A DNA stretch of 64,000 nucleotides from Patescibacteria group bacterium UBA4787 (GCA_002402995.1 DHGX01000003.1:3765-67764); one strand, 5' to 3'; counted from the stretch's first letter, positions 3 to 59,665 are shown. Numbers and translations: made by a program. Notes: generated by a model from the letters alone, not told the origin.

Positions 3-1013
3 TTGCTTCAAACGAGTTGGCTGGTCATAGCGGAGATCGTTAACAGGATTATATTGGTGGCCGGCTTATTTTTCATTATTAAAAATAATCTTGGATTTTA
101 TATTTTGATATGGCTATTGGCAATAGTTGCCCTGGTTAATTTATTTATTTTATTTTTAATCGCTTTTTTTGAAAAAGAACAAAAAATAAAATTGGCTTTT
201 GACGTCGCTATTTGGAAAGATGTTTTGGGGCAGGCTTGGCCTATTGGCTTGGCCATCGCTTTAAATTTAATTTATTTTAAGGTCGACACATTGATTTTAT
301 CTCTTTACCATTCGGCGTCAGACGTGGGTTTTTACGGCGCCAGTTATCGCGTTTTGGAAACGTTAATGACCTTTCCTCTGATGTTTATAGGATTGGTTGT
401 TCCTTTTTTATCCAAATCTTGGTTGGAAGGCAGCCGAGAAAATTTTGAACGTTATTTGCAGAAAGCTTTTGATTTTTTGATTTTAGCGTCCATTCCTATG
501 GCGCTCGGAACTTATGTTCTGGCTGACAGATTAATGATTTTTGTGGCTGGTCCGGAATTTTCGGCAGCCGGACGCATCTTGAAAATTATTATTTTCGCTA
601 CCAGTATTATTTTTGTCAGCCAGCTTTTTACGCACACGCTTTTTGCCATTCGCAAACAGCGCTTAATGCTTTGGTTTTATTTATTAACGGCTGTTGTTGC
701 TCTGATCGCTTATTTTATATTTATCCCCATTTATTCTTATTGGGCCGCGGCCATCATTACTTTAACATCGGAATTGATTATTTTTGTCTCTGCTTATTTA
801 ATTGTAATGCGTACCGCAAAAATTAAATTAAAATGGCGGATTTTTTATCTAAGTTTTTTGGCCAGTTGCTCTATGTCTTTGATAATTTATCTGTTTCACG
901 GATTAAATTTATTCTTGTTAATTATTTTGGGTATTTTAGTTTATTCTATTATTATTTATTTAATAGGCGGAGTAGACAAAAAATTAATTCATAGTTTGTT
1001 GAAATTAAAATGA
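3..1013 (+). CDS. Wzx-like polysaccharide biosynthesis / flippase-family polytopic membrane protein (5' end truncated by window edge)
   Basis: Long ORF of multiple hydrophobic helices; motifs resemble the MOP/Wzx family (…GFYGASYRVLETLMTFPLMF…PFLSKSW…). Runs off the window start. Confidence 0.5.
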   Translation: MLQTSWLVIAEIVNRIILVAGLFFIIKNNLGFYILIWLLAIVALVNLFILFLIAFFEKEQKIKLAFDVAIWKDVLGQAWPIGLAIALNLIYFKVDTLILSLYHSASDVGFYGASYRVLETLMTFPLMFIGLVVPFLSKSWLEGSRENFERYLQKAFDFLILASIPMALGTYVLADRLMIFVAGPEFSAAGRILKIIIFATSIIFVSQLFTHTLFAIRKQRLMLWFYLLTAVVALIAYFIFIPIYSYWAAAIITLTSELIIFVSAYLIVMRTAKIKLKWRIFYLSFLASCSMSLIIYLFHGLNLFLLIILGILVYSIIIYLIGGVDKKLIHSLLKLK

Positions 1014-2272
1014 TCTGGATTATTGTTTCACTATTAATAATTTATTTTATTTTGGCCCTAAAGAAGCCGCATCTCGCTTTAGCTTTAATTCTATTTTTAT
1101 TGCCGAGCTATCAAATAAGATTTAATGTTTTCGCGCTCCCGACCACTTTTTTAGAGGGAATGATTTTGTTGTTTTCCTTGGCCACATTAATCCGCGAAAA
1201 GTTTAATTTTAAGAATATCTATTTCAGCGCGTCGCGCCGTTGGCGATATCTGGTTTTGGCCTGGCTTTTGTGTTCCAGTTTGGCGATTTTTGTTTCTCCG
1301 AATAGAATCGCGGCGCTGGGAATTTGGAAAGCTTATTTTGTCGAACCGATTATTCTCTTTTTTTTGTTTCTGTTTTATTTTCGAGATCGCAGCCAGAGAA
1401 AATTATTTATTTATAGTTTATTAGGATCGGCTTTTTATCTTTCCGTATACGCGATTTACCAAAAAATCACGGGCCAAGGCGTTTATAGCTTGGAAATCTG
1501 GCCAAGCGGCCGAGTTTTAAGATCAACGGGCTTGTTTTCTTATCCCAACGCTCTGGGTTTATATTTAGCGCCGCTTATAATGGTCGCTGTTGGTTATTGG
1601 CGATCAGCCATTTCAAAATTTGAAAAAACATTTTTAATATCGGTGATTATTTCTTCGATTTTGGCGATTATCTTTTCCCGATCCGAAGGCGCCATATTGG
1701 GAATAATTATTGGTTGTTTTTCTTTTGGTTTTTTGTATTCGTCTTGGCGTAAAAAGACCATTTTATCGTTTTTAATTTTTGTTTTGATTATAGTCGGTTT
1801 ATATTTTTTTGTTCCCAGCGCTAAAAATTATTTGTATCCCAAGGTTGCCTTCAAAGATTTTTCTTCGCAGGTGCGCCTGGGAATATGGCGTGAATCTTTT
1901 AATATGCTTAAAGATCATTCTATTCTCGGCGCGGGCTTGGCCGGTTATCAGAAAACAATGCCGTCTTATCATAAAATAAATTATGTGGAAATTTATCTTT
2001 ATCCGCACAATATTATTTTAAATTTTTGGTCGGAATTGGGGCTATTGGGTTTAATAATTTTTATTTTAATTATTTATAGTTTCTTCGCGCGCGCCAGAGA
2101 TAAGATTAAAGAGGCGAAGCAGAAGCAAGATATTTCGGCGCTTTGGTTGATCGCTGCTGTGTCTAGCGCCATGATTGTAGTTTTAGCGCATGGGCTGGTG
2201 GACGCACCTTATTTTAAAAATGATCTGTCTATCATTTTTTGGCTGATAAGCGCCGTTGTTTTAGCTATTTAA
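1010..2272 (+). CDS. O-antigen ligase / polymerase (Wzy_C, WaaL-like) family membrane protein
   Basis: 420-aa polytopic protein with the Wzy_C-type loop (…LGAGLAGYQKTMPSYH…YPHNIILNFWSELGLLGL…). Start overlaps the stop of the upstream flippase-like gene (ATGA). Confidence 0.55.
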   Translation: MIWIIVSLLIIYFILALKKPHLALALILFLLPSYQIRFNVFALPTTFLEGMILLFSLATLIREKFNFKNIYFSASRRWRYLVLAWLLCSSLAIFVSPNRIAALGIWKAYFVEPIILFFLFLFYFRDRSQRKLFIYSLLGSAFYLSVYAIYQKITGQGVYSLEIWPSGRVLRSTGLFSYPNALGLYLAPLIMVAVGYWRSAISKFEKTFLISVIISSILAIIFSRSEGAILGIIIGCFSFGFLYSSWRKKTILSFLIFVLIIVGLYFFVPSAKNYLYPKVAFKDFSSQVRLGIWRESFNMLKDHSILGAGLAGYQKTMPSYHKINYVEIYLYPHNIILNFWSELGLLGLIIFILIIYSFFARARDKIKEAKQKQDISALWLIAAVSSAMIVVLAHGLVDAPYFKNDLSIIFWLISAVVLAI

Positions 2273-2395: not shown

Positions 2396-5300
2396 GTGAC
2401 CACATATAAACAAAAAATTATTTATGTCTTTTGCCTGCTTTTATGCTTGCCAAATTTTGTTTTGGCTGGCGTTAGCCAAAATGATACCACGGGCGTTTAT
2501 GCGAATACTTTAAGCGACTACACGGGTATAAGCCGGACCAGCAATTTGCGTTTGGATAATGGTAAAATTGCCTTGAGTCAAAATACCAATCATCAATATC
2601 AAGAAGATTTTACCACCGCGGTATATGGCGCTAGTTCCACCGCGCTCTGGGACATTGCGAACCATCGATTATCTTTGAAGTCAAAAAATATTTTTGTGGC
2701 GAAAAATGGACTGGACGCCAATTCAGGCACGGAAGACGCGCCTTTTTTGACCGTGGCCAAGGCGTTGGCAGTGGTTCAGCCGGGCGACACGATCTATGTG
2801 AAAAAAGGGATTTATTATGTAAGCTCATATTTCACGAGCATCGTGGGCACAGCCGACGCGCCTATTACGATTATGCCGTACCCAGGAGATCGTTACCAAG
2901 TTATTTTTGACGGCGAAGGTGTTTCTCTCTACAGTTTTGGCTACTCCTCTTTGCGATACCTGACCATTGACGGTTTCATTTTCCGCAATTATCCCGATGG
3001 CCCGATTTTAGGCGGTCCCTACACATGCGACCACAATATTTATAAAAATAGTATAGTTTACGGCATTCTCCATACCGGCGAGGATATAAATTGCTCTTAC
3101 AATAAAATTATTAATAATTTATATATTGGCGGGCAACAACAGCTTTATTTGCCTAACGCTACAAATAACGCCGCTATTTTGAATAATAGTTTTTTGAAAT
3201 ATTCCAGAGACACAGCTATTTACGCTCCAACTGCTGGTACTGCTGATCACGCGATAAAAAACAACATTTTCTATACCATGGGCAATTACGGGGTTGACGA
3301 TCCCGGTCATTATTTTATTAGTTATCAAAATGGCGGCATTTCCAGTATTGATAATAATCTATATTATAACCCTTTTTCCAATTCTTATTTGTTTCATTAC
3401 AACCACGGCGCTGGCGCAGTATACTATTCCAACAATAGCGCTGATTTTTCCACTTGGCAGGGTTATGGTTTTGACGCGCATTCTTTGATCAATCAAGATC
3501 CAATGTTCACCCCGGGAGACCTCGGTTTGTATTATCTGGCCGCAAACAGCCCGGCCATTGACGCTGGCGCTAATGATTCAGATGTTTCCTATTTAACTGA
3601 CGGCAATTGGTGCACTTCATCTACTAACACGCCTGACACAGGCACCGTGGACATGGGTTTCCATTATTTCTGCGGCACAGCTGAAGCTGTGGCCAATCGT
3701 TATCCCTCTTCTGGGGAAGCGCTTTCTAATGAGATAAACAGCAATGATTTTTCAACAAAAAATGTCAGTAAAGCTACTCTAACCGCTACTTATGATCTCA
3801 ACGGTTTAGCCGCGAGCAATCTGGTATTTTATCTTTCGGCAGATAGCGGCGCCAATTGGGAAGAAGTTACTTCTGGCGTTGAACATACTTTTACTAATAC
3901 TGGCACAAGCTTATATTGGAAAGCTGTTTTAACTACCAACGACGAAACTAAAACGCCCGTGGTCACGCAAATAGTCGTAGATTATACCTACGCGACAACT
4001 CCTGTAACTTCAGCCCAAGAATCTTTTACCGATGATTTTGTGACTCCCTCTTTCCAAAGCGGGACTGAGGGATGGGGAGGTAATGAGACTTTTGGCGATG
4101 GTTCAGGCTTGAGGTTAACATCTACTACCGACTATTGGACTTGGCCTTTACGCAGCAGTGGATCATATACGGTGGGTGGCGTAAATTTAGGCACCGTGCT
4201 TTCACTGCCAGATTCAAACACCTACACCCCTGCCGTGGTTTTAGACAAACAAAACCATCCAGCGGTTTTATTCAAGGTCTACGAAGGCGATCTCGACACC
4301 TATAATCTGTTCTTCGCGCGTTGGAACGGCGCGAACTGGGTTAAAGCCGATGGCGTTGCTGGTTATGATCAAATATTAGCCACTAGCACCTATCAAATCA
4401 CAGAATATAAATTATTGTTTGACACCCAGAATCGCCCATATGTGGCTTTCGCGAGAAAAGAGGCAGACGCAATTCATACTAATGCCTATTTTTCATATTT
4501 TAACGGCACAGCTTGGACCACGGCTCAAAAAATCAGCGGCTCGCCGTCTGATTGGGGTTGGTATCTCGATTTCGCCATAGATGCTAACAACCGGCCTTGC
4601 GTGGTTTTTTCCGGCTACATTGACGCTACTGACTATGAAGATATTTATTTGACTTGTTTAAATAACGGGACCTGGACTTACGCTGATAACACCACTCCTG
4701 GTTTGGAAAATGTCAGCCAAGTTAACCACGCCAGTTATCCAGAATCTGCCACTATTATTTTTGACAATAACAATCGACCGATGGTTGCCTGGACAGACCA
4801 CACTTCAAACCAAGTAGCTTTCACGCGTTGGAACGGCGCAACCTGGACTTACGCTGATAACACCACCCCCGGCATTGAATATTTTGCTAACGCGACTGCT
4901 GACGGAAACGCGCGATTGGCGATTGACGGCTCGGACCACCCGATTTTGGTATGGAGGAACTACACCGTTACAACGGGAGGGAGTTGTGGTTTTAAAAAAT
5001 ATTATAAAACTACGACGACGAATATTTATTTGAATTATTGGAACGGCACAGCCTGGAAAGCTATGAACGGAGTTGATGATGGCCCGGAAACAATACATTC
5101 AAGAACAGCGACCGCCTGCAACTCTACATTACCCGTTAATTTTAAAATGCTTTTAGACTCTAATTTTAGGCCGAATTTTGCGTTTAGCGATTGTGCTTAT
5201 GATCCTGATACTGGCTGGAAGAACGCATTTTTATTTAGCAAATGGAATGGTTCAATGTGGACAGAAGCTGATGGGGCAACGCCTTTTGATTATAATAATT

Positions 5301-8300
5301 ATAATGTCCTTTTTAATGCACATCCTTCATATTTTGTTCTTGATCAAAACAATTATCCCAATTTAATTTTAAGCAACACGTCTTTCACCGCTTGGAACGG
5401 CACAGCGTGGGCTAACCTTATTAACGAAGCCAATACCAGCACAAATCTCGGCGATAATACGGTCACGGGTTTTTTAGTGGACAATGATGATAATCTTTTT
5501 GTTTTTAATTCTTCAAATGTAATCGCCACCTCATATCAAGGTGCTCCAGCCATAGTCGAGTATAACACCCCTGGGCACTATAACGCCAATTACACACCTA
5601 CCGGGCTTTCAACTGATTATACTTATGTGGTGGAAAGTGTTACCATGACCAGCTTAACAACCGATCTTCACGGCTTGGCTGCTTCAAGTTTAAGTTATCA
5701 GGTGCGTTGTTCCAATACAGGCGACTGGGAAACGGTTGCCTTGAACGAACAAAAGACTTTAATTTGCACAAACAATTTGTTTAACTACAAGGCCAATTTA
5801 AGCACCGCTGACCCAAACCAAACTCCAGAAATCAAAAACATCACCTGGCAAATCACCTATAGAGCTATTGACAACGAGGCTGCGGCTAACACGCTTTATG
5901 ACCATAACGACGTTTTGAGCAGTTCCACCACCTTTACTATTGATTCGGCCGCGGCGGTTTATGACGCCACGAACCAGAGGATTAAATTTAATCCTACGCC
6001 TTGGCGGGATTTAGTTAATGAAGCTTATGATCCTACTTATTTAAGCGCCACAGAAACTGGCTTTATGGATAACCCCCAGATCATCACTGACAGCAATAAC
6101 CGTTTGTGCGCAGTTTGGCGCGAAGGCGTTTTCAACAAAGGCGACATTTATTACTCCTGCTGGAGCGGCGCGGCTTGGGTGAAAGCAGACGGCACGACTG
6201 GTTATGATAACGTGAGCAACAATACCGGCGACTCTGATTTTCCTAGGCTGCTTTTGGACAACAATAATTATCCTTACGTGGTTTGGCAGGACAGCACCGA
6301 TAGTCATGCTTCGAGTACGGCCAATTACGACATTTTTTTTAAGTACTATGACGGTTCAACTTGGCGTGGTTTGAAAAACGCCGCGACCCATGACAATTTA
6401 TCGCAAAATCTCGGGCCTTCGTATTATCCGGAATTTGTTTTAGATAGCGTTAACCATTATCCGCAAGTTATCTGGCAGGACAGAAGCGAAGGCTTATGGA
6501 AAATTTATTACACCAAATGGAACGGCGTTGATTGGGTGAAAACCAACGGTGATTCTGGTTACGAGTCGCCCACAGGCCCAGTGATTTCATATCATGACAG
6601 TTTTGAGCGCAAACCGCCGATTCATCAATACGGCAAGATAAAGCTCAATAGCAATAACCAGCCGAATATTTTGTGGCAAGGATATTTTAACGAAGCCGGC
6701 GCCAGTCACACCAAGTCCCAAATATATTTTACCTATTACAATGGTTCAGCTTGGGCAGGCTTGGAAAACGCTTCTTCCACGCGCGATAATGTTAGTAATA
6801 CCACGAGCAGTGACTGGAACATGCAACCCAATCCTGATTTTGCCATTGACAGCAGCAACCGTGTTTACGCGGCTTGGATTGATAATTATCCTGATGTGTA
6901 TGGTGATGGATTTTATTTCAAATATTTTGATGGCAGCAATTGGGTGGGTTTGGCCAGCGCCACTTCCCAGCCGGATTGGATTTTTGATTTTATGCCTGAT
7001 CTTGCGAGCGGCAGTGACGACTACATTTATCATTACACCCAAGTAGAATTAGACAGTCAAAGCCGTCCTCACATCTTGGCTATGAAAACCACGGGTTGGT
7101 CTGTCAACAGAAATAATTGTTATACTTATTGGAACGGTTCGCAGTGGTCAAAAATTGACGGGGTAACAGGCGGTTATGATTCATTTGGCACCGGCGAACA
7201 AGCAGAATTTGTTTTAAAAGATGATTTTCCTTGGGTGATATATAAAACCGATCGAGCAGTTAAATTTGTGAAGGGTACGGCTTCTGGTTTTGAATCAGCG
7301 CAAGGGGTTTCACACCAAACGGTTAACCAAGCCTCAAGCGTTTACCCCGTGATTGCCAAAGCCGGTAACGGCGATATGTACGGAGCTTGGGTGGAGGGTA
7401 GGACCACCGGCCAAGGCAGCCGCTTGGCAATAAAAAAACATAGCGCTTCGTCCACAACCGAACAAACCGCCACGATTATTTCCACCGCAGCTAATTTAAC
7501 GTCATCGGGATACCGATATATCACCTCAGCCACTTTAACCGCCTCAGCCACGCTTAACAACGGAACCATCGTTTATTATTTATCCGCAGACAATGGCGCG
7601 CATTGGGAAGGCCCGATTACTTCCGAGGTGGAGCATATTTTTACCAATACTGGTCGAGTCTTAAAATGGAAAGCTGTTTTAACTGGCGATGGAGTTAATA
7701 AGCTGCCGGAAATTGACGCGATTACTGTGGCTTATAACATCAGCGATTATGCTTCCAGCGGTTATCTTATCTCTAAATTAGTTCAGCCCGCGGAGATCGG
7801 TTCATGGGACAGGGTTGTGGTTAGTCAAACTTTGAACGGCGGTACAGTCAGTTATCAGATTTTAGATAAAAATGGTAACTTAGTGCCTGACAGCGAACTC
7901 ACTGGCAACAGCGCGGGCTTAACTCCAATTGACAGTGAATTAAATATTGCTTCTATAAACGCTTCTAACACCAATTATTCTTCCTTATATATCAAGGCAA
8001 CCGTAAATTCGGCCAACTCAGTTTCTACTCCCACGATTACCAGCTTGAACGCTAAATGGATCAAAGCTAAGGCCGGTAACGATGTAGTTAGTAATGGCGC
8101 TGCTTCTTTTGACGCCACATCGTCAATTGGCGAAGTCTATACTTGCGCTTGGGATTTTGATTCATCGGACGGCGTTGATTGGAATAATCCTGATTCTAAC
8201 TCCTGTCAGGTCGACTATGACTATACCCCCAAAGGCGGCGGTTCTTACACGGCCACTTTAAGAATCAAGCAAGGAACTGCCACGGCTTATGATTATGACA

Positions 8301-10321
8301 CCAGAGTGGTGGCGGTTACCGTGGGCAGCGGTGGCAGCACGCCCACTCCTCCGCCTGCTGAAACTCCTGTTCCAACTACTATTTCTTTATCGCTTAATCC
8401 GTCTTCGCTTTTCGCTGATGCCATTAGCCAAAGCGCGTTGACCGCTGAAGTCTTTGACCAGTTCAATAATCATGTGGCTAACAACACGCCTATCGCCTGG
8501 GATATTGTTTCTGGCAGCGGCTCTTTGGCTTCTGCTTCTACTCCAACCACGAATGGTTTGGCTTCTAACACCTACACAGCCGGCGCTCAAGCAGGCGACA
8601 TTGTCATTAAGGCCTGTACCGCTAATCTCAAATGCAATGAAAAGACATTAACCTTGAAAGCGATTGAAGGACCCTCGGTTTTAACCAGTTTAACCATTTC
8701 CCCTAAAACTCTTTCTTTAAAAAAAGGGCAAACCGCGCAATTCTCCGCGATTGCCAAGGATCAATATAATAATACTTTAACCGGTTTGGTTTTAGAATGG
8801 CTAACCAGTAATTCGTCTCTCGGCCTGATCAATTCCAGTGGCCTTTTTCAGGCTTTGGCTAAAGGCATAGTAACGATTACCGCGAAAAGCGCTGGTCTTT
8901 CTGATCAAGCCGCGGTTACTGTCACTGATACTGACGAGCCAGAGATAATTCTGCCTGTTTCACCTACGCCCGAACCGCCAACAGTTCCAATTACGCCAAC
9001 TCCGACACCCGGAACAACGCCTACGCCTATCCCAACGACACCAGGTGTGGGTACTATTACTACTCCATCGACTGGCGGGTCTGCCTCGCCAAGTCAAGGC
9101 GGGCCAGAAACAGGAATTGGCGTTGGCGCGGAAGCGCCAAGTGAAAATATTCCTATTGTTCAGTTGCCGTCGGTCTTTGAAGAGAAAATAGCTCAACTTG
9201 ACATAGTTTTTGAAAAAGCCAAAGAAATTTATCAAACTAAAATTTTAGAGAATAAAACCGTTCAAAAAGTTAATCAGCAAGCGGCTTTGCCGGTTATCGC
9301 GGTTGTTTCAGCGCTTAACGTGGCAGCCAGTGTTCCAGCCGCGGCTTCGACCCTGCCATTACTCCAATATCTTTTTCAGCTTCTCAAATTCTTTTTCACT
9401 CAACCGGCTTATCTTTTCGTCAGACGACGCAAGTCTTGGGGCACGGTCTATGATGCCATTACCAAACAGCCTGTTGGTTTAGCGATGGTTAGGCTTTACG
9501 AGTTGGTGCCGTCTTTAACCGAACAAGGATCAATCAAGAAATTGGTTCAAACCAAAGTAACCGGGCCGGATGGCCGTTATTTCTTTGCGGTTAAACCAAA
9601 GACCGATTATCAGCTCGAAGTTAATAGTGTCGATTATAATTTTCCTTCAAAATATCTTAACCAACAGCCCAGTGACCGTCTTTATCAAAATTTATATTAT
9701 GGCTCGGTTTTTCGTTCAGGGGCCGAGGGATTGATAAATTTCAATTTGCCTCTTGATTTGCAAGAGGGTAAAACGAGCATCGCCGGCTCAACCAAAAAAG
9801 TTAAGTCGTCATTTGCCAATTTAGAGGAATTTTTCAAGGCTCCGGCAGATGAAAAAGAAAAAGCTTATCACCAAGTTAAGCGTCAAGCCAATTTGAGAAA
9901 ATTGGCTCAAGGAATTTCTTATCTTTCGCCGAGCTTGGCTCTGGTTAATTTAATTATTTCACCCAACGCGCTAACTCTGGTTTTCCTTTTTGTTCATTTA
10001 ATTTTACTTTTTATCTTCAGGTTTTTTAACCCAAATGTTCTAATTAAGTCATTGGGCAGAACCTTCAATCTCAATACCCAAGAGCCGGTAGGCCAGACCT
10101 TAGTTTACTTATTTGAACCCCAATTTAACAAACTCGTTCAAACTCAGATTGCCGACACCAGGGGGAAATACGGTTTCTTGATCGGAGATGAAAAATATTA
10201 TTTGGTCGCTCAAAAACCCGGCTATGTTTTTCCTCAAGACAAAATGGAAATTGTCGGTCAAGCCGAGAGCATGGTGAAGAAAGATTTAGGGATGAAGCGG
10301 AGTCAGCAGAAAACTTCATAA
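2396..10321 (+). CDS. Giant secreted multidomain surface protein (2641 aa). Signal peptide; right-handed beta-helix (pectate-lyase-like) region; 13x ~65-aa WNGxxW repeats; FN3/PKD-like modules; 3 Big_2 Ig-like domains; Pro/Thr-rich linker; C-terminal membrane anchor with 2 CarboxypepD_reg-like domains
   Basis: Single 7.9-kb ORF with GTG start. N-terminal hydrophobic signal (…CLLLCLPNFVLAG). NNxF/NNIFY beta-helix rungs. Repeated D..NRP.V.W…WNG..W blocks. PKD-like WIKAKAGNDV…CAWDFD…GVDWNNPDSNSCQ. Big_2-like LTSLTISPKTLSLKKGQTAQF. PTPEPPTVPITPTPTPG linker. C-terminal TM, RRRKSWGTVYD…GPDGRYFF, TM, QTQIADTRGKYGFLIG…KPGYVFP. Confidence 0.8.
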   Translation: MTTYKQKIIYVFCLLLCLPNFVLAGVSQNDTTGVYANTLSDYTGISRTSNLRLDNGKIALSQNTNHQYQEDFTTAVYGASSTALWDIANHRLSLKSKNIFVAKNGLDANSGTEDAPFLTVAKALAVVQPGDTIYVKKGIYYVSSYFTSIVGTADAPITIMPYPGDRYQVIFDGEGVSLYSFGYSSLRYLTIDGFIFRNYPDGPILGGPYTCDHNIYKNSIVYGILHTGEDINCSYNKIINNLYIGGQQQLYLPNATNNAAILNNSFLKYSRDTAIYAPTAGTADHAIKNNIFYTMGNYGVDDPGHYFISYQNGGISSIDNNLYYNPFSNSYLFHYNHGAGAVYYSNNSADFSTWQGYGFDAHSLINQDPMFTPGDLGLYYLAANSPAIDAGANDSDVSYLTDGNWCTSSTNTPDTGTVDMGFHYFCGTAEAVANRYPSSGEALSNEINSNDFSTKNVSKATLTATYDLNGLAASNLVFYLSADSGANWEEVTSGVEHTFTNTGTSLYWKAVLTTNDETKTPVVTQIVVDYTYATTPVTSAQESFTDDFVTPSFQSGTEGWGGNETFGDGSGLRLTSTTDYWTWPLRSSGSYTVGGVNLGTVLSLPDSNTYTPAVVLDKQNHPAVLFKVYEGDLDTYNLFFARWNGANWVKADGVAGYDQILATSTYQITEYKLLFDTQNRPYVAFARKEADAIHTNAYFSYFNGTAWTTAQKISGSPSDWGWYLDFAIDANNRPCVVFSGYIDATDYEDIYLTCLNNGTWTYADNTTPGLENVSQVNHASYPESATIIFDNNNRPMVAWTDHTSNQVAFTRWNGATWTYADNTTPGIEYFANATADGNARLAIDGSDHPILVWRNYTVTTGGSCGFKKYYKTTTTNIYLNYWNGTAWKAMNGVDDGPETIHSRTATACNSTLPVNFKMLLDSNFRPNFAFSDCAYDPDTGWKNAFLFSKWNGSMWTEADGATPFDYNNYNVLFNAHPSYFVLDQNNYPNLILSNTSFTAWNGTAWANLINEANTSTNLGDNTVTGFLVDNDDNLFVFNSSNVIATSYQGAPAIVEYNTPGHYNANYTPTGLSTDYTYVVESVTMTSLTTDLHGLAASSLSYQVRCSNTGDWETVALNEQKTLICTNNLFNYKANLSTADPNQTPEIKNITWQITYRAIDNEAAANTLYDHNDVLSSSTTFTIDSAAAVYDATNQRIKFNPTPWRDLVNEAYDPTYLSATETGFMDNPQIITDSNNRLCAVWREGVFNKGDIYYSCWSGAAWVKADGTTGYDNVSNNTGDSDFPRLLLDNNNYPYVVWQDSTDSHASSTANYDIFFKYYDGSTWRGLKNAATHDNLSQNLGPSYYPEFVLDSVNHYPQVIWQDRSEGLWKIYYTKWNGVDWVKTNGDSGYESPTGPVISYHDSFERKPPIHQYGKIKLNSNNQPNILWQGYFNEAGASHTKSQIYFTYYNGSAWAGLENASSTRDNVSNTTSSDWNMQPNPDFAIDSSNRVYAAWIDNYPDVYGDGFYFKYFDGSNWVGLASATSQPDWIFDFMPDLASGSDDYIYHYTQVELDSQSRPHILAMKTTGWSVNRNNCYTYWNGSQWSKIDGVTGGYDSFGTGEQAEFVLKDDFPWVIYKTDRAVKFVKGTASGFESAQGVSHQTVNQASSVYPVIAKAGNGDMYGAWVEGRTTGQGSRLAIKKHSASSTTEQTATIISTAANLTSSGYRYITSATLTASATLNNGTIVYYLSADNGAHWEGPITSEVEHIFTNTGRVLKWKAVLTGDGVNKLPEIDAITVAYNISDYASSGYLISKLVQPAEIGSWDRVVVSQTLNGGTVSYQILDKNGNLVPDSELTGNSAGLTPIDSELNIASINASNTNYSSLYIKATVNSANSVSTPTITSLNAKWIKAKAGNDVVSNGAASFDATSSIGEVYTCAWDFDSSDGVDWNNPDSNSCQVDYDYTPKGGGSYTATLRIKQGTATAYDYDTRVVAVTVGSGGSTPTPPPAETPVPTTISLSLNPSSLFADAISQSALTAEVFDQFNNHVANNTPIAWDIVSGSGSLASASTPTTNGLASNTYTAGAQAGDIVIKACTANLKCNEKTLTLKAIEGPSVLTSLTISPKTLSLKKGQTAQFSAIAKDQYNNTLTGLVLEWLTSNSSLGLINSSGLFQALAKGIVTITAKSAGLSDQAAVTVTDTDEPEIILPVSPTPEPPTVPITPTPTPGTTPTPIPTTPGVGTITTPSTGGSASPSQGGPETGIGVGAEAPSENIPIVQLPSVFEEKIAQLDIVFEKAKEIYQTKILENKTVQKVNQQAALPVIAVVSALNVAASVPAAASTLPLLQYLFQLLKFFFTQPAYLFVRRRKSWGTVYDAITKQPVGLAMVRLYELVPSLTEQGSIKKLVQTKVTGPDGRYFFAVKPKTDYQLEVNSVDYNFPSKYLNQQPSDRLYQNLYYGSVFRSGAEGLINFNLPLDLQEGKTSIAGSTKKVKSSFANLEEFFKAPADEKEKAYHQVKRQANLRKLAQGISYLSPSLALVNLIISPNALTLVFLFVHLILLFIFRFFNPNVLIKSLGRTFNLNTQEPVGQTLVYLFEPQFNKLVQTQIADTRGKYGFLIGDEKYYLVAQKPGYVFPQDKMEIVGQAESMVKKDLGMKRSQQKTS
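4310..7150 (+). repeat. Array of 13 tandem ~65-aa WNG-x-x-W protein repeats (coding repeat) inside giant gene 1
   Basis: Recurring (F/Y)x(R/K/Y)WNG(A/T/S)xW…ADG(T/V)xGYD blocks, each preceded by (L/I)DxxN(R/H/Y)Px(V/I)xW. Near-identical 27-nt DNA stretch acctggacttacgctgataacaccac at ~4664 and ~4845 shows a recent unit duplication. Confidence 0.7.
7500..8340 (+). repeat. Module shared with giant gene 2 (FN3-like + beta-sandwich + PKD-like), paralogous to ~11800-12620
   Basis: Protein-level collinear similarity: YYLSADNGAHWEG…WKAVLTG vs YQMSADGGSHWEN…WKTVLTT; WIKAKAGNDVVSNGAASFDATSS…GVDWNNPDSNSCQ…RIKQGTATAYDYDT in both. Confidence 0.7.
9290..10318 (+). repeat. C-terminal anchor module (TM - CarboxypepD_reg-like - 2 TM - CarboxypepD_reg-like) paralogous to 13900-14914 in giant gene 2
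   Basis: RRRKSWGTVYD…TGPDGRYFF and …QTQIAD..G.YGFLIG..KYYLVA.KPGYVFPQDKMEIVGQ…KKDLGMK are conserved between the two giants (~65-90% aa identity over the module). Confidence 0.75.
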
Positions 10322-10534
10322 TTCAAAGAATTTGGACAAAACTGTCTGAAACATTTTTATAAATCGCCGGAATTTTTATCGAAGGGAGATGTTTTGGTTT
10401 TGTCCAACGACTTCGTTTACAAGATAGGAGAAACGATTAAATAAATTGACAGGCGTTGCTCACAGTGATATTCTTAGGATAGATACGCGGAAATTTGACT
10501 ATTGAGTTTTCTATATTTTATAACAATTTCTGAT

Positions 10535-13500
10535 ATGAAAAATTTTGGCCAAAAAATTTCAAAGAATTCGAAATTTTTGTGGTTATTGTTTATAGCAATT
10601 ATATTATCGCCTAATTTTGTTTTGGCGGCTCCCGCGCAAGACAATTCGCGCGGAACTTTTTACGACGACTTTACGAATATCGGCGGCGTTGCCTTGAGCG
10701 CGAATACCGAAGTAGACGTCGCGCATAATTGGATCGGCTTAAAGCCAGACGAACAAGGTGATTATCCGCTTTCCAGCACTTTTGATTTCACTGAAGATTT
10801 TTCCACTAATAATTTTAAGGATACAACTGATTCAATAGACATTGATTGGAATATTAATAATCGGAAATTAAAACTTTTTAAAGAGAATGATTGGACAAAC
10901 CCCGTTTCTATACCAGAAACTTATTTAGGCGGATTGGGCGTTGATACTAATACCAACAAGTTGTACGCTGGCACGGCCGCTAATCGGGAAATTTACGAAT
11001 TACAAGACGCGAGTTTTCAAAAAATGACTGGTCCATGGAACGATGGATGGTTTTATTCTTTTTCATCGTATCAAAATAAATTATACGCCAGCGGAAATAA
11101 TGGAGATTGGAGTACGAGCGACGGGATTTATGTTTACGATGGTTCTTCTTGGTCAATTTCTTCCGGCTCGCCCACAGAAGGATCTGGCAATTCAGCTATG
11201 GCCATGGCTGTTTATGACAATAAACTTTATCTTGGAACGCGCAATGATTTTAATTACGCCAAAGTTTTTTCTTTTGATGGCGCTTCTTGGCAAGACACGA
11301 ATGTCACCAGCACTCAAATAGCGTTTATTTCTTTAGTGGTTTACAATAACAAACTTTACGCCGGTTCGTCTAACGACTCAGGTTGGACAAATCCCGAGGT
11401 CTTTGTTTATGATGGCAATGCATGGAATTTATCAACTCAATGTCCAGACGCTTCTAGTGGAGCGGCACACTTGGTCGTCCACGACAACAAGCTTTATGCG
11501 TCCTGTGAGAATCCGTCTTATGGCAGTCGAATGTTTGTTTACGACGGCGATACTTGGTCAGCAATGGCAAACATAGATTATCGCGTTTATCAATTAATTT
11601 CCTACGATAACAAACTTTACGCCGCTACTTCCAACGGACTTTACGTTTTTGACAATAATTCGTGGGACTTAGAATATCCCGGTTCTGTCGGGGCATTAGC
11701 GGTTTATAATAATCGGCTTTATCTCGGTCTCGGCAATACTGCTAATATTGTTTCTATTGGCACAAATTTTAGTTATTCATCTTCCGGCGTCGCGGTTTCT
11801 CTAAAAATTAATGGCAACGCGTCTGGCGTTCAGTCAGCCAAAATTAGCCCGACCCAGATTCTAAATGGTCAAACCATTAATTATCAAATGTCAGCTGATG
11901 GCGGCAGTCATTGGGAAAATGTTACCCCAGGTTTAGAGCATATTTTTATCCACCCGGGCGATGATTTAAGATGGAAAACGGTTTTAACCACTTCAAACAT
12001 TAGTGCTTCGCCAGAAATTACCAATTTAGAAATTCAATATCAGGCAACTGCTTCCTCGGTCACTTCAATTTCTATCACTCCTTCAGAAGTCGGCTCTTGG
12101 GATAAAATCATTTTTAATCATACTTTAAATGACCAGGCCATTACTTATCAGATTTTGGACTCTTCGGACGCTTTAATACCTGATTCAGTTTTGCCGGGTA
12201 ACGCCGCGGGTTTTTCCGCTAGCGGTACTTCTATGACGATTGATTTGTATGCGCTTCCAAGCGCGACTTATCCGTCCATTAAAATTAAAGCGAATTTGCT
12301 CGCCAGTTGCAATCTTTATACCCCAACCATCAATTCCTGGAAAACTTACTGGATTAAAGCCAAAGCTGGCGATGATATCGCGTCCGGAGGCTCCGCTTCT
12401 TTTGACGCCACTTCTTCTGTTGGTGATAGCTACACCTGTGCCTGGGATTTTGACGTTTCTGATGGCGTTGATTGGAACAATCCTGATTCCAATTCTTGCC
12501 AACCCATTTATGATTATCGTTCCAATAAAGGAGGCGGCATTTACACCGCCTCTCTTAGGATTAAACAAGGAACTGCCACGGCTTATGATTATGACACTAA
12601 GGTCGTCACGGTTAATTTAGGTAGTAGTAGTGACGAAGAAAGCCCTAAATATTTAAATTTCTCCGCTAACCGCCGTATTTTATTGGCTGATTCCCCGAAT
12701 CAGAGCATAATTAGCGCTCAAGTTTTAAACAAAAATAAAAAAGCTGTACTCGACGGGACTACGATTGTATGGAGTCTTCTTTGCCCGAATCTAACCACGG
12801 ACTTCAAAGATCTTGCCTGTGGAACATTATCTAACAATCAAAGTTTGACGGCAAATGGCGCGGTTTCTACAATTTTTACGCCGGGACAATTAGCTGGTTC
12901 AATAATAGTAAGGGGTTGCGCGATCAACGGTGTCTGCGCCGAACAAGCCATCAAGGTGGCTCTTAAGCAGCGCGGAAAAATAATTTTGAAATCTAATTAT
13001 TCTATTTTGCCGGCTGACGGAAAGTCCAGAATAAAAATTTACGTTAAGGTATATGACCGTTATTTGAATCCTTGGTCAAATGTTGTTATTTCTTTAAAAT
13101 TGATTAGTTTAGGCGCGGATCAAAAAGAAATCAAATTCACAGGTGAACTGTCGTCAACAGAGATAAAAACAGACAATAACGGCGAAGCGCTTGTCTATTA
13201 TTCGCCGGGCGAACAAATCGGAAAAATAAAAATTAAAGCTAATATAGAAAGCAATCAATCGTTGAGCGGGTTCAGGGTTTTGAATAAACTGGCTTATTTT
13301 TTAAAATACCTCACGCCTTCTTTTTTAAAATCAACCGCCAGCCATTTTTTTAATTTTGTAATGGCGGCCACGGCCCCAAAAATTTACGCCCCATATCCAA
13401 TTCAACCCGTGCCCATAATTGAGCCCCTTCCGCTTCCGGAAGAAGAAATTCCAGAAGAAGAAATTGTTTTGCCGCCAAATGACGAAGAAGTGGTCGGAGA

Positions 13501-14917
13501 ACTTGACCTTGATTTAGTTGATTCAGAATTAATGACCACGATTGTTGAAGATGAACCTCAGCCATTAGTTCAACCTCCAGATCCATCTGCTCCTACGCCA
13601 CTTTCCGAACAGTCAGGATCCCAAATAGGTGTTCCTAGTGAGAGTTATTCATCAGCGCCGCCGCCGTTACCGGTATATCTTCGCGCTCCAGTTTCGATTC
13701 CTTCAGCAGAAGCCGCGCCGACTATTATTGAAATTCATTATCCCGAGACAAAAGCGGCAGAGACGGCCAGTGATCCGTCTGGCTTTACGGAAATAATTGA
13801 GAAAACAACCGATTTGACACAAAACACAATAAGCGCGGCAACCGTGATCGTTAAAAAAATTCACACAAATCCGACGGTTCAAACTGTTAATCAAGTCGTA
13901 GCGCCAACAGTCTCGGCTGTAACCGTTGCGGCTGTGGCCGCTTCCGGCGCGGCTTCAAGCGCCACCGCCGTTCCTTTATTCAATATGGCTGTTCTTTTAT
14001 TCACCCAGCCTTCGTATCTTTTGACTCGGAGAAGGAAATCATGGGGCACGGTTTATGACTCCCTGTCCAAAGAACCAGTCTCTTTGGCTATAATTCGTCT
14101 TTATGAAATAATTTCGCAAGCTAATGAACAAAATAAAACTAAGAAACTTATCCAAACCCGAGTAACAAGCGCGGACGGACGTTATTTCTTTTTAGTCAAA
14201 CCATATACTAATTATCAAATTGAAGTTGTTTGTAATGGTTATAAATTCCCCAGCCATATTCTGAAAGCAGGCGTTCAAGAAACCATTTATACGGATGTCT
14301 ATTACGGCGAAGTTTTTAATTCTAACGATAATACTATAATTAATCCGAATTTGCCGCTTGATTCGCAGGAGGGGAAAGTTTCTTTGGTCGGTTTTAACAA
14401 AAAAATTAAAACTATTTTTGCCGATTTAGAGCAGTTTCTAAAAGCGCCAATTAATGCAAAAGAAAAAGAATACCGAAGAATCAAAAAAGAGGCCTTGACC
14501 AAAAAGGCGCTTAGGTTTCTTGCTTATCTCGCGCCTATTTTAGGCTTTATTAATTTATTAATTTCACCCAATAAATGGACATCATTATTATTCATTTTGC
14601 AGTTATTAATGCTTTTGGTTTTCCGGTATTTTATTGAGAAGATTTTGCCATATAAACAACATCTAGGGCGCGTTTTTGATATTGACACCAATAAGAATAT
14701 CGGACAATCTTTGATTTATCTTTTTGAGCCGCAATTCGGGAAATTAATTCAAACGCAAATTGCCGACAATGACGGACTCTACGGATTTTTAATCGGCAAT
14801 CAGAAGTATTATTTAGTCGCCGAAAAACCCGGCTATGTTTTTCCCCAAGACAAGATGGAAATTGTCGGTCAGGTCGAAGGCATAGCTAAAAAAGATTTAG
14901 GTATGAAAAAAATCTAG
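10535..14917 (+). CDS. Giant secreted surface protein 2 (paralog of giant 1). Signal peptide; Kelch-like beta-propeller repeats; FN3/PKD-like shared module; Big_1-like Ig domains; acidic/Pro-rich linker; same C-terminal TM + 2x CarboxypepD_reg-like anchor
   Basis: ATG at 10535 (MKNFGQ…; track ORF begins at an upstream TTG, 10502). Signal …LLFIAIILSPNFVLAAPA echoes giant 1. Repeats YDNKLYAGT…VYDG..W (x7). Shared PKD module. EPLPLPEEEIPEEEIVLPP linker. C-terminal module as in giant 1. Confidence 0.8.
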   Translation: MKNFGQKISKNSKFLWLLFIAIILSPNFVLAAPAQDNSRGTFYDDFTNIGGVALSANTEVDVAHNWIGLKPDEQGDYPLSSTFDFTEDFSTNNFKDTTDSIDIDWNINNRKLKLFKENDWTNPVSIPETYLGGLGVDTNTNKLYAGTAANREIYELQDASFQKMTGPWNDGWFYSFSSYQNKLYASGNNGDWSTSDGIYVYDGSSWSISSGSPTEGSGNSAMAMAVYDNKLYLGTRNDFNYAKVFSFDGASWQDTNVTSTQIAFISLVVYNNKLYAGSSNDSGWTNPEVFVYDGNAWNLSTQCPDASSGAAHLVVHDNKLYASCENPSYGSRMFVYDGDTWSAMANIDYRVYQLISYDNKLYAATSNGLYVFDNNSWDLEYPGSVGALAVYNNRLYLGLGNTANIVSIGTNFSYSSSGVAVSLKINGNASGVQSAKISPTQILNGQTINYQMSADGGSHWENVTPGLEHIFIHPGDDLRWKTVLTTSNISASPEITNLEIQYQATASSVTSISITPSEVGSWDKIIFNHTLNDQAITYQILDSSDALIPDSVLPGNAAGFSASGTSMTIDLYALPSATYPSIKIKANLLASCNLYTPTINSWKTYWIKAKAGDDIASGGSASFDATSSVGDSYTCAWDFDVSDGVDWNNPDSNSCQPIYDYRSNKGGGIYTASLRIKQGTATAYDYDTKVVTVNLGSSSDEESPKYLNFSANRRILLADSPNQSIISAQVLNKNKKAVLDGTTIVWSLLCPNLTTDFKDLACGTLSNNQSLTANGAVSTIFTPGQLAGSIIVRGCAINGVCAEQAIKVALKQRGKIILKSNYSILPADGKSRIKIYVKVYDRYLNPWSNVVISLKLISLGADQKEIKFTGELSSTEIKTDNNGEALVYYSPGEQIGKIKIKANIESNQSLSGFRVLNKLAYFLKYLTPSFLKSTASHFFNFVMAATAPKIYAPYPIQPVPIIEPLPLPEEEIPEEEIVLPPNDEEVVGELDLDLVDSELMTTIVEDEPQPLVQPPDPSAPTPLSEQSGSQIGVPSESYSSAPPPLPVYLRAPVSIPSAEAAPTIIEIHYPETKAAETASDPSGFTEIIEKTTDLTQNTISAATVIVKKIHTNPTVQTVNQVVAPTVSAVTVAAVAASGAASSATAVPLFNMAVLLFTQPSYLLTRRRKSWGTVYDSLSKEPVSLAIIRLYEIISQANEQNKTKKLIQTRVTSADGRYFFLVKPYTNYQIEVVCNGYKFPSHILKAGVQETIYTDVYYGEVFNSNDNTIINPNLPLDSQEGKVSLVGFNKKIKTIFADLEQFLKAPINAKEKEYRRIKKEALTKKALRFLAYLAPILGFINLLISPNKWTSLLFILQLLMLLVFRYFIEKILPYKQHLGRVFDIDTNKNIGQSLIYLFEPQFGKLIQTQIADNDGLYGFLIGNQKYYLVAEKPGYVFPQDKMEIVGQVEGIAKKDLGMKKI

Positions 14918-33993: not shown

Positions 33994-35475
33994 TTATTGT
34001 ATTTTAATTTTAACTAAGTAATTTTTGTTATTTTGGCGTTCAATAAAGTATAAATTTTTACTTTGATCTACCCCCAATATTTTTTCAATGAAAACGTTTT
34101 TTATAATTTCGGATCGATAATAATAGTCGCGATTATCAAGCTCTAAGGCGATGAGTCGCTCGGAATTAGCGTAAACGATATAATTATTATCATACCAGGC
34201 TACGTCTTTAATTAAATTGCTTTCGCGTAAAACTATTTCATTCTTTATAATTTTTTGATCGTTCTCTCTCTTAACGGTCAAGGCAATAATTTCCCAGTCA
34301 TTAAAACAAATAGTCGTTTCGTCTAATTTGATTACCTTGCGACAGAAGTATTTATTTGATAATTCCTGCCCTTGATTATCGTTTAGGTTAATAAAGTAAT
34401 AATTTTTCAAGCCGTCTTTAATAGAGATAAAACCATCCGTTAAAAAAATATCCTCTAATTGATATTTGCCATCAGGCAAATATATTTTTTTGACAATATC
34501 ATCCGGCTTGTAGTTCGTCCATCCGCTTTTTTTCCTGATTTGGTAGAAATTAATACCTTTTTGATTTTTGGCGACCAAATAAACAAAATTATTATCAATT
34601 AACCAGTCGTTTATTTCTGAATTTTTTAATCCTACCCACTGCGGGTTAAAGATAATCTTCAGAGACTCTTGCGCGGGGTCATAATCATAAACGATTTTTT
34701 TATTATCAAAAGATAAACTCGCGCTATTAGCCCAACGGACATGATTGACGAAAGATATGCCTGGGATTTTAGCCAAATTTTCCGCTGTTTTGTTTAAATC
34801 GACCACAACAATGCCACCGGATTGATCAACCATCGCGAATTTAGTGCCGTCGTTATTTAAAATATTTTTGACTTCGCCCCGCAGGTTATTTTTTATTAGA
34901 GGACGATCAGAAATTTTTAGATCGGTGGTGTCAATTAGATAAATTCTATTATATGTTTTTTTCTGGGCGATAATTTTATTTTGACGATGATCAGATTCAA
35001 AAAACGTATCCACGGGCATTTCTTTTTTCTCTACGACTGGTTGTGCCAAAAAAAGATTTATTTTTTTACTGAAGGTCGTTTGGCCGGCAACGATTTCTAA
35101 TTTCTTTTGCCAATTTTGATAACCGTTCTTGCTTATAGAGACATTATAAATATTAGGAAGAAGGTGACTGATCAGAGTCGGCGTACTGCTTTCTATCTTT
35201 GTTAAGCCTAGTAGTTCTTTATAAAATAATAGCCGTTGGTACCAGCGGTCATTAATGGTTCGCCCATTAATAATTACTTTGGCTCCCGGCGGAGCGGAAT
35301 CTAAATAAAGGTTGCCTGTTTGGGTGAATTTTCGACTAATCGGGCTATAGCGATAGCCATAGCTATACAAAATAATTAAAGGGGCTAAAATAATGAAGGC
35401 TAATACTCCTAGTCCGATGATTAATTTTCTTAATTTATCCGGCATGATAGAAATAATTACTACTTGTCCGCCCAA
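33994..35475 (-). CDS. N-terminally membrane-anchored hypothetical protein with PEGA-like domain (probable true start ATG at 35447)
   Basis: MPDKLRKLIIGLGVLAFIILAPLIILY TM anchor; PEGA-like …PGAKVIINGRT…NVSISKNGYQNWQKKLEIVAGQTTFSKKINL. The track start at 35475 uses TTG. Confidence 0.55.
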   Translation of the reverse strand: MGGQVVIISIMPDKLRKLIIGLGVLAFIILAPLIILYSYGYRYSPISRKFTQTGNLYLDSAPPGAKVIINGRTINDRWYQRLLFYKELLGLTKIESSTPTLISHLLPNIYNVSISKNGYQNWQKKLEIVAGQTTFSKKINLFLAQPVVEKKEMPVDTFFESDHRQNKIIAQKKTYNRIYLIDTTDLKISDRPLIKNNLRGEVKNILNNDGTKFAMVDQSGGIVVVDLNKTAENLAKIPGISFVNHVRWANSASLSFDNKKIVYDYDPAQESLKIIFNPQWVGLKNSEINDWLIDNNFVYLVAKNQKGINFYQIRKKSGWTNYKPDDIVKKIYLPDGKYQLEDIFLTDGFISIKDGLKNYYFINLNDNQGQELSNKYFCRKVIKLDETTICFNDWEIIALTVKRENDQKIIKNEIVLRESNLIKDVAWYDNNYIVYANSERLIALELDNRDYYYRSEIIKNVFIEKILGVDQSKNLYFIERQNNKNYLVKIKIQ

Positions 35476-59500: not shown

Positions 59501-59665
59501 TTTGATTGGTCTGGCCGTGAAGGTTGGGCCATTAAGTTGCGAATTTTCGGAGCTTTTACAGTAAAATACGAACGATTCAAGTTTGTATATCGGCCACAGG
59601 ATCTGCGCAAGATCCGTTTGCGTGGCTACGACCAGCATCGTTGGTCGTTGGACATGGACTTCTAA
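56576..59665 (+). CDS. Compositionally foreign (~50% GC, rough estimate) 1029-aa secreted protein: HExxH zinc-peptidase-like region, beta-propeller-like middle, C-terminal beta-barrel-like domain ending in aromatic residue
   Basis: Signal peptide MTRRIFLLALLTIMVMLTSGAFA; HEIAHAW; C-terminal alternating-hydrophobic segments ending …RGYDQHRWSLDMDF. Own promoter (TTGACAgaaccg…TATTATA) and RBS. Confidence 0.7.
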   Translation: MTRRIFLLALLTIMVMLTSGAFARNAITYRPFDWQKVNRGNYEVWYPKVMEYQIPATLAIIDSINESYSTLVFGKYRDHMEWYQRKYHSKQKKAVPAPKLFTASSDKAEEVKKTESDSTDLFYLFTDGKGNPDSLKFVYNWKPKKLVIVLYPSMQDYTQIKAFPGAIIPPQVLGLTETNHFRVFVPYTGEWHEYEAVLAHEIAHAWMLNFVQENQKRRDLKTRNIVPVFHNYPLWFVEGWAELLSRDYYCGNKLSLIHASLEDYTRQAVVDGRIPPLEQMGGEVYPLGYSFMRWMVDRFGIHKINELMLVTLFYNHFEPSWEYIFKESLRESEVKWREYLKERYYKDLYERSVAGKISVATDFKQSPFVGSFSYDQTSKLFVGYVPDSRQGVSIAVVNGNVPDTSKKKFLILHTQFDDKTLWYKWAKPIVRGLQVAWVVNVNGADEIHLAQIDTTDKKLKISQEQVLRSEQIVAIQNICFENDNLVVFSGVAVDGKTDLYRVTTKDAKFERLTDDLYNDRSPVPFDKGYLFVSDRQSPYGEGLYYLDMETSQIIKIFFVDGGFVGNICVDADQKSVAFRLISQFHSAQILVWNKSSGEFREVYRTFRGADFLVGFNGKNLLFTAEGVFKNDQHNNLILLNRKLLSLDLAKLDSCAIVQYEPSEIVEEGWSPKEVADFKPEKPETKLQYSGDVVGAKGATNATGEKRMGLDVGFFAAAGTPVFYNITTVYQDLSQRTEKTYILQSFQDYSWKYSPDRSKNNFMLCRDWNLWRFAYNAYYPLNFEDGLGYGYTIGHVRRIYENNVYVGSDKPDKVWTPLTGFHGYFLHDGVFGQFGGPQWGSAVVGYADINLTSSVLDGKIVVDARNYLPLGRRTRVYLANRLFMAKSFGMDRSFFEDSNPFAQRKGYEGSQFSTPGGIGTAIIIHQTELRFPLVNWVFFQPAFTPLKDNRRGIFWFTVDGSLFAEGGDVWFNEIRKFDWSGREGWAIKLRIFGAFTVKYERFKFVYRPQDLRKIRLRGYDQHRWSLDMDF

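Follow-up and report, generated by a model that had tools for sequence, protein, structure and literature searches.

A candidate C-terminal membrane-anchoring module shared by giant surface proteins of Patescibacteria

Bacteria in the Candidate Phyla Radiation (CPR), or Patescibacteria, are mostly uncultured, ultra-small and often episymbiotic, and to our knowledge their mode of host attachment and the makeup of their surface proteins are largely unknown. We analyzed a 64,000-nucleotide stretch of DNA, one strand read 5′ to 3′, from Patescibacteria group bacterium UBA4787 (GCA_002402995.1 DHGX01000003.1:3765-67764); this whole stretch is called the window, and positions are counted from its first letter. 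Two giant genes, g1 and g2, lie here in tandem and encode adhesin-like proteins that end in the same module of two hydrophobic regions and two β-sandwich domains, which we describe as a candidate membrane anchor (Table 1). An initial annotation had proposed that g1 and g2 are tandem paralogs with a common C-terminal end. Translation of both open reading frames (ORFs) confirmed this proposal, and BLASTP aligned residues 1695–2635 of g1 with residues 432–1470 of g2 at 39% identity over 1066 positions (E = 0), an alignment that runs to the protein ends. Over the final ~300 residues, identity rises to 55% (tblastn), and the N-terminal leaders are weakly similar (BLASTP, E = 6e-6). By tblastn, the window holds just two copies of the module, those of g1 and g2. 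For g2, the ATG codon within the ORF is the likelier start, because the database protein P0003, which matches g2 and spans the C-terminal module through its final residue, has exactly the length of the ORF read from that methionine (1460 residues).

Upstream of the shared part the two proteins differ, as had been described. In g1, a DUF1565 match stands at the Pfam threshold, Big_2 scores over its threshold and Big_1 under it, and eight W[NS]GxxW repeats suggest a propeller; in g2, N[KR]LY occurs seven times as a repeat, and Kelch matches weakly (Pfam, E = 0.011). The annotation also described a common FN3/PKD piece. Such a piece is indeed present in both genes and is the stretch best conserved between them, whereas its domain identity comes down to a weak PKD_4 match (E = 0.065). 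The best explanation of these features together with the C-terminal module is that g1 and g2 would be Sec-exported proteins in which mosaic, adhesin-like ectodomains are carried on a membrane anchor.

The module covers ~330 residues in the order hydrophobic region 1, K/R cluster, sandwich A, hairpin, K/R cluster and sandwich B, with an identical layout in g2 and g1. Region 1 of g1 has 47 residues with a single lysine (K2331); its first half is rich in Ala, Val and Ser, and its aromatic second half ends in a conserved LFT[E/Q]P motif. Hydrophobicity scans detected a weakly hydrophobic stretch ahead of RRRKSWG and a strongly hydrophobic double segment of 36–38 residues. A model of the module computed with AlphaFold2 (AF2) from a 27-sequence alignment (mean predicted local distance difference test score (pLDDT) of 85, predicted TM-score of 0.73; pLDDT of 59 in an earlier run with four sequences) is confident in the two β-sandwiches and the helical hairpin. 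The scans and the model together bear out the anatomy given in the initial annotation, namely a hydrophobic stretch, RRRKSWG with a sandwich, two transmembrane (TM) helices and a second sandwich.

Both sandwiches adopt a CarboxypepD_reg-like fold, again as predicted. A Foldseek comparison with the Protein Data Bank (PDB) returned, at the level of single domains only, SdrD B1–B2, the SpaA/CnaB pilin, transthyretin/HIUase and the C-terminal domain of carboxypeptidase D/N, all sharing the seven-stranded prealbumin-like sandwich with a probability of 1.0. In Pfam, sandwich A of g1 and g2 stays under the PF13620 (CarboxypepD_reg) cut-off (25.7–29.2 bits versus 32.3), and the sandwiches of relatives match it in 25 of 27 cases (best E = 4.4e-19) and SdrD_B (PF17210) in all 27 (best E = 1.7e-9). 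The alignment of domain A with domain B begins at the basic cluster and extends over the sandwich (HHalign probability of 99.8%, E = 1.9e-28). As judged from this alignment, the module is a tandem duplication of a unit consisting of a hydrophobic segment, a K/R cluster, 'WG' and a transthyretin/CarboxypepD_reg-like β-sandwich. The fold is the one found in PF13620, SdrD_B, CnaB and transthyretin sandwiches; unlike those, each sandwich here is fused behind a hydrophobic segment with its K/R cluster, a membrane hairpin splits the pair, both sandwiches are probably cytoplasmic, and the family has near-invariant motifs of its own (WGxVY, TKxPxxLAxVRL, GRYxF, FPS and NxPLD). A 493-residue PEGA-domain protein, with a sandwich of the transthyretin clan, is also encoded in the window (33994..35475, − strand) and gave no match to the module by tblastn.

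We searched 1.84 billion cluster representatives exhaustively with a HMMER profile of the module, which g1 (residues 2264–2635) and g2 (residues 1070–1471) match end to end. The search yielded 3701 clusters at E ≤ 1e-3, of which 971 reach E ≤ 1e-30; a word-indexed search was far less sensitive, with two matches for the module and 18 for the profile. The best 150 of the 3701 matches are proteins of 269–3635 residues that carry the module at their C-terminus or close to it, and 92 of 113 full-length members begin with a hydrophobic signal segment. The clusters looked up by name are called only 'uncharacterized repeat protein (TIGR01451 family)' or 'hypothetical protein'. From database representatives, g1, g2 and genomic loci we assembled 234 module-bearing relatives. 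Sandwich B ends within 15 residues of the C-terminus in 134 of these, and in 83 it is followed by a TM-free tail of at least 45 residues, except that the tail of P0125 is a third hairpin-plus-sandwich unit.

When one genome per species was scanned with a pattern, tblastn confirmed at least 589 loci, overwhelmingly in Patescibacteria. Among the best 80 of these loci, 50 have Patescibacteria labels (with Buchananbacteria, Falkowbacteria, Magasanikbacteria, Uhrbacteria, Parcubacteria and Saccharibacteria represented), and 23 are labeled 'uncultured Gammaproteobacteria' in TPA_asm records of metagenome-assembled genomes (L010, L011, L015, L018, L021–L023, L025, L029, L031–L034, L038, L049, L050, L056, L058, L060, L064, L072, L079 and L080). 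At least three of the 23 (L018, L029 and L080) share two upstream genes with the Buchananbacteria loci, and L080 shares their entire gene order; because of this common context, the gammaproteobacterial label is probably a default or an error. Several genomes hold more than one copy of the module, including a tandem pair on one contig (L021/L038). The ectodomains range from 160 to 3307 residues, and ~20% of pairs have some domain in common, so they appear to be mosaics of a common repertoire; the same clustering led us to discard a description of the ectodomains as unrelated cargo. Together, these searches support the view that this is a lineage-wide C-terminal anchoring module of the CPR, fused to many different ectodomains.

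One distant match, P0170, led to a stand-alone CPR family of 22 clusters (P0170–P0191) with proteins of 278–314 residues on contigs of up to 811 kb; two of the clusters carry lineage labels, Doudnabacteria and Patescibacteria. HHalign matches residues 63–357 of the module, whose core of sandwich A, hairpin and sandwich B the family shares, with positions 20–285 of a 286-residue stand-alone protein (probability of 100%, E = 6.1e-45). In 21 of the 22 members, neither a signal peptide nor a TM segment precedes sandwich A, and the N-terminus consists of a charged amphipathic lead of 25–50 residues followed by a basic cluster. In-frame stops upstream of P0170 identify it as a complete gene. Stand-alone genes adjoin housekeeping genes (L083, L086, L087 and L088): the one at L086 follows mreBC, PBP2 and folD, and those at L087 and L088 follow a thioredoxin-reductase-like gene.

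These data make it probable that both sandwiches are cytoplasmic and that g1 and g2 are type I membrane proteins. In 106 aligned modules, the 15-residue flanks have mean net charges of −0.6 (before) and +4.35 (after) for region 1 and of +3.5 (before) and +3.9 (after) for the hairpin. Under the well-established positive-inside rule, these charges suggest a single out-to-in crossing, followed by a hairpin with both ends inside. The rule appears to hold in these proteins, because nine large relatives, inspected by eye, have an upstream TM pair that encloses a K/R/H-rich loop of ~20–60 residues between acidic ectodomain segments. Because the stand-alone proteins have no export signal, their sandwich A should be cytoplasmic; with an in/in hairpin, sandwich B should therefore be as well. 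In these proteins the lead is the counterpart of region 1's second half, which suggests that the giants cross the membrane via the first half and that the second half is interfacial. The sandwich domains are probably not exposed at the cell surface, as the flank charges and the signal-less homologs point to the cytoplasmic side, and this position is likely a new point beyond the initial annotation. An extra mid-protein TM pair was seen in many of the largest relatives (P0030, residues 2515–2690; P0035, residues 2125–2290; P0040; P0052; and others), whose ectodomains would have more than one attachment point on the membrane.

The tails past sandwich B have features that would be more typical of cytoplasmic tails. 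With P0125 set apart, they are 45–307 residues long, disordered and P/E/K-rich, and some are coiled-coil-like. Of 83 tails, 32 end in [FYWM]G-COOH (for example, ...KSIFG), 16 contain a HEDFYxVDxL-like motif and ten contain IPWELxxLxK (PWEL). Examples are found at L026:3586-7386 and L008:3592-7314 and in P0039 and P0083; g1 and g2 have no such tail.

Several observations weigh against a cytoplasmic position of the sandwiches. Region 1 is about 41 residues long with a central proline, which is the length class of the hairpin; it is only marginally hydrophobic, its best 19-residue window scoring ~+3.5 kcal/mol on an additive Hessa-type scale; and AF2 models it with low confidence (pLDDT of 43–66). 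It could be a hairpin or lie outside the membrane altogether. In bacterial surface proteins, sandwiches of the transthyretin, CnaB and SdrD_B types usually lie outside the cytoplasm, a weaker third sandwich copy is present on the ectodomain side in 58 of the 234 relatives, and the roles suggested below for the module, as a foot in the membrane or in binding a partner, are purely inferential. Composition was discarded as an indicator of compartment: the ectodomains are acidic and K/R-poor (5% K+R, isoelectric point of 4.5) and the sandwiches contain 11–16% K+R, but K/R richness is also seen in other exported proteins encoded in the window and in the third sandwich copy at the ectodomain side. 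In an all-outside alternative, both hydrophobic regions would be out–out hairpins and the sandwiches would form a membrane-proximal extracellular stalk, with the K/R clusters binding anionic lipid head groups or wall polymers. We regard this arrangement as unlikely. It would account for the marginal hydrophobicity of region 1, for a fold family that is typically extracellular and for duplicate units with similar hydrophobic stretches (about 41 and 36 residues) and a central Pro turn, and the three units in series in P0125 are what topologically neutral hairpins would lead one to expect. It would also demand translocation of three clusters of 4–5 K/R residues directly beside hydrophobic segments, and it sits poorly with a region 1 whose N-flank is acidic when the other three flanks are strongly basic, with upstream TM pairs that obey the positive-inside rule in the nine large relatives and with a stand-alone family whose sandwich A, for want of a signal peptide, cannot be exported.

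Readings of the module as part of a known sorting or secretion system fare worse. As the initial annotation had stated, Pfam, NCBIfam, regular-expression and window-ORF scans were all negative for a sortase, S-layer homology (SLH) or type IX secretion system (T9SS) signal. No sortase (PF04203) was found among the scanned window ORFs of at least 120 residues; no LPxTG-like motif occurs in the C-terminal regions of g1 and g2, which end in sandwich B; SLH (PF00395) gave no match at E ≤ 0.1 for the full proteins or E ≤ 10 for the modules; the T9SS C-terminal domain (Por_Secre_tail/TIGR04183-type) gave none in Pfam or NCBIfam at permissive thresholds; and no sorting-signal model of either database matches g1 or g2. 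Pfam, NCBIfam and the PDB contain no family corresponding to the composite module, of which they recognize only the sandwiches; a PDB sequence search with the module returned SdrD alone (E = 8e-4), and full-text literature searching found no description of it. With its TM segments upheld, the module lies outside the well-described anchor families of these three databases. LPXTG/sortase anchors, such as that of the MSCRAMM SdrD, resemble it in retaining large adhesin-like proteins by their C-termini in a monoderm envelope, in the succession of a hydrophobic segment and a basic cluster and in having B-repeat-like sandwiches close to the anchor. They differ in the LPXTG motif and nearby sortase gene that the module lacks, and the module continues for ~290 residues beyond its basic cluster with no cleavage indicated. 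A role as a sorting signal that a dedicated sortase- or exosortase-like enzyme would cut off or transfer, so as to link the protein covalently to the wall, is very improbable: a sortase gene does lie directly downstream of one distant relative (P0002), but the module has two folded domains in ~330 residues instead of a short tripartite tail, and no sortase-like gene appeared among the recurrent neighbor clusters read at 80 loci, of which only the two largest were scanned with Pfam. Of the annotation's phrase 'anchoring or export module', anchoring is supported, given the CPR-wide C-terminal family, and export is unsupported, given ordinary N-terminal Sec-type signals and no conserved accessory neighbors beside the closest relatives. 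The idea of a translocation device for the giant ectodomain, autotransporter-like or working with a dedicated secretion partner, draws on the constant association of the module with very large exported proteins and nothing else; we hold it to be more improbable still, because these proteins have signal segments of their own, the module has only three or four helices in the AF2 model without pore-like or ATPase features and also exists alone without cargo, and YidC and SecDF are encoded in the window with no special system beside g1 and g2. The similarity between the paralogs had also been proposed to provide substrates for recombination. It is real at the DNA level but modest, at 75% identity between g1 8096-8318 and g2 12389-12614, 77% between 10104-10296 and 14715-14907 and 68% between 9389-9622 and 13992-14227, which are pieces of 190–240 bp. 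Exact matches reach 32 bp at most, and only 16 20-mers are shared; because identity is this low, the pieces are poor substrates, and efficient homologous exchange is unlikely today. That the tandem genes serve as cassettes for surface variation, recombining via leader, PKD-like segment and C-terminal module, therefore seems a slim prospect, the more so as near-identical tracts, which gene conversion would have left behind had it been recent, are absent, even though the genes share their ends and one internal segment around differing middles and other genomes also have tandem or multiple module genes, the L021/L038 pair among them. A 179-residue protein, P0169, looks like the product of an internal deletion: a g2-like signal/leader (37% identity) is joined directly to a g1-like end of TM3 with sandwich B (73% identity), and the contig given for it has 261,978 bp, the length that is also given for the contig of P0003. 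P0169 hints at past rearrangement and may be a collapsed third paralog, left by internal deletion or recombination.

Table 1. Features of g1 and g2 in the window (aa, residues of the encoded protein)
Feature	Position	Strand	Basis or remark
g1, gene for 2641-aa giant surface protein	2396..10321	+	GTG start; ORF list, translation
g1 signal-peptide-like segment (MTTYKQKIIYVFCLLLCLPNFVLA)	2396..2467	+	Kyte-Doolittle scan
g1 DUF1565 match (right-handed β-helix type), aa 104-142	2705..2821	+	Pfam, 20.8 bits; cut-off 20.3
g1 eight W[NS]GxxW repeats, propeller-like, aa 643-1584	4322..7147	+	Regular-expression count; weak BNR_4 match
g1 segment paralogous to g2, aa 1695-2641	7478..10318	+	BLASTP
g1 PKD-like domain, aa 1875-1990	8018..8365	+	BLASTP, Pfam, tblastn
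g1 hydrophobic region 1 (helix 1a + helix 1b), aa 2296-2342	9281..9421	+	Hydrophobicity scan, alignment
g1 basic cluster RRRKS	9422..9436	+	Alignment, flank charges
g1 sandwich A (transthyretin/CarboxypepD_reg/SdrD_B-like), starts 'WG'	9437..9808	+	Pfam, AF2, Foldseek
g1 charged amphipathic linker helix	9809..9910	+	AF2 (H209-232)
g1 helical hairpin of 36 aa with no charged residue, a Ser-Pro turn and basic flanks on either side	9911..10018	+	Hydrophobicity scan, AF2
g1 sandwich B, paralog of A	10049..10306	+	HHalign, AF2
g2, 1471-aa ORF	10502..14917	+	TTG start; likely start ATG 10535 (1460 aa)
g2 signal-peptide-like segment	10535..10630	+	Kyte-Doolittle scan
g2 seven N[KR]LY repeats, Kelch-like propeller, aa 152-410	10955..11731	+	Regular expression, Pfam
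g2 PKD-like domain common with g1, aa 604-712	12311..12637	+	BLASTP, Pfam, tblastn
g2 hydrophobic region 1	13895..14026	+	Coordinates by module layout
g2 basic cluster RRRKS and sandwich A	14027..14413	+	Pfam, module layout
g2 helical hairpin	14510..14623	+	Hydrophobicity scan
g2 sandwich B	14663..14905	+	BLASTP, module layout

Unrelated housekeeping genes surround the gene of the closest relative, P0004, and no conserved accessory gene is among them. At about half of the best 80 of the at least 589 loci, the module gene is the third in a conserved run and is often followed by another giant gene (L008:1917-7314, L013, L019, L024, L026, L043, L052, L066, L080 and ~30 more). The run includes genes for a secreted protein of ~242 residues with no Pfam match and for a protein of ~314 residues with a signal peptide and a C-terminal TM segment, in which WxLIP_PGBD (PF06030) was detected in ten of 23 scanned (best E = 2.3e-6). 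A module gene placed directly after WxLIP-like and ~242-residue secreted-protein genes recalls the WxL/DUF916 (WxLIP, Csc) loci of Firmicutes, and the run may be a CPR counterpart of these surface-complex loci. It differs from them in that no WxL domain was detected in the 242-residue protein and no LPXTG partner was seen; WxLIP_PGBD occurs only beside more distant relatives, and the neighbors are absent from the locus of the closest relative. The window likewise has no match to the profiles of the two conserved neighbor families, and the downstream giant is absent from it.

Upstream of g1 and on the same strand are a fragment of a Wzx-type polysaccharide flippase (3..1013, + strand) and, directly 5′ of g1, a gene of the Wzy_C/O-antigen-ligase family (1010..2272, + strand). 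Because protein O-oligosaccharyltransferases are among the enzymes of the Wzy_C family, the Ser/Thr/Asn-rich giants could conceivably be glycosylated. Elsewhere in the window, the SecD homolog (36951..38585, + strand) is an unusual fusion, with a PPIC-type Rotamase domain (residues 148–239) between SecD_1st and the P1 head. A 500-residue ORF (53713..55215, + strand) combines S4, RluA-type pseudouridine synthase and guanylate kinase, by fusion or by read-through of two genes. Two further ORFs have no significant Pfam match: one of 1029 residues (56576..59665, + strand) and one of 672 residues (42767..44785, + strand), the latter with a sub-threshold HTH_11 (E = 0.002).

With the sandwiches placed in the cytoplasm, we propose that Sec would thread the ectodomain outward until region 1, held by RRRK as a stop-transfer segment, crosses the membrane once, with its second half at the inner interface. 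The strongly hydrophobic 36-residue Ser-Pro hairpin would then dip into the membrane and return, so that sandwich A, the hairpin and sandwich B would remain at the inner face. One TM segment, an interfacial helix, a hairpin and two folded domains would thereby form a broad cytoplasmic 'foot' that resists pull-out from a monoderm membrane. Such an arrangement would require no covalent wall linkage, dedicated sorting enzyme, secretion system or accessory gene.

The module is far more conserved than the ectodomains, so it may contact a conserved intracellular or membrane partner. Its near-invariant motifs across thousands of clusters, together with its existence as a stand-alone protein, suggest that the module itself may act at the inner face, for example through self-assembly or a conserved partner. 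A more speculative extension, to which we give a low probability, is that the module could be a CPR-specific transmembrane coupling device, derived from a stand-alone inner-face membrane protein with two transthyretin-like domains and fused repeatedly to host-contact ectodomains. In that event, adhesion or tension at the surface would be linked, mechanically or informationally, to a conserved cytoplasmic partner, with the tail motifs as docking sites, and the module would be the bacterial equivalent of an integrin-type receptor. Integrins and cadherins offer an analogy only: they too combine a variable, very large ectodomain, a single crossing and a conserved intracellular part, and a third of the relatives have a disordered tail with a short conserved end motif. 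They show no homology to the module, for which no partner or signaling is known, and the functional comparison is speculation.

If the sandwiches are cytoplasmic, these proteins would be type I giants with a conserved intracellular part, which is unusual for bacterial adhesins, and would exemplify sortase-independent retention of very large proteins in a monoderm envelope with a possible link to an intracellular partner. The stand-alone homolog is a small, tractable protein for structural and topology work. The module itself provides a sequence handle for cataloguing candidate adhesins and surface proteins throughout the CPR.

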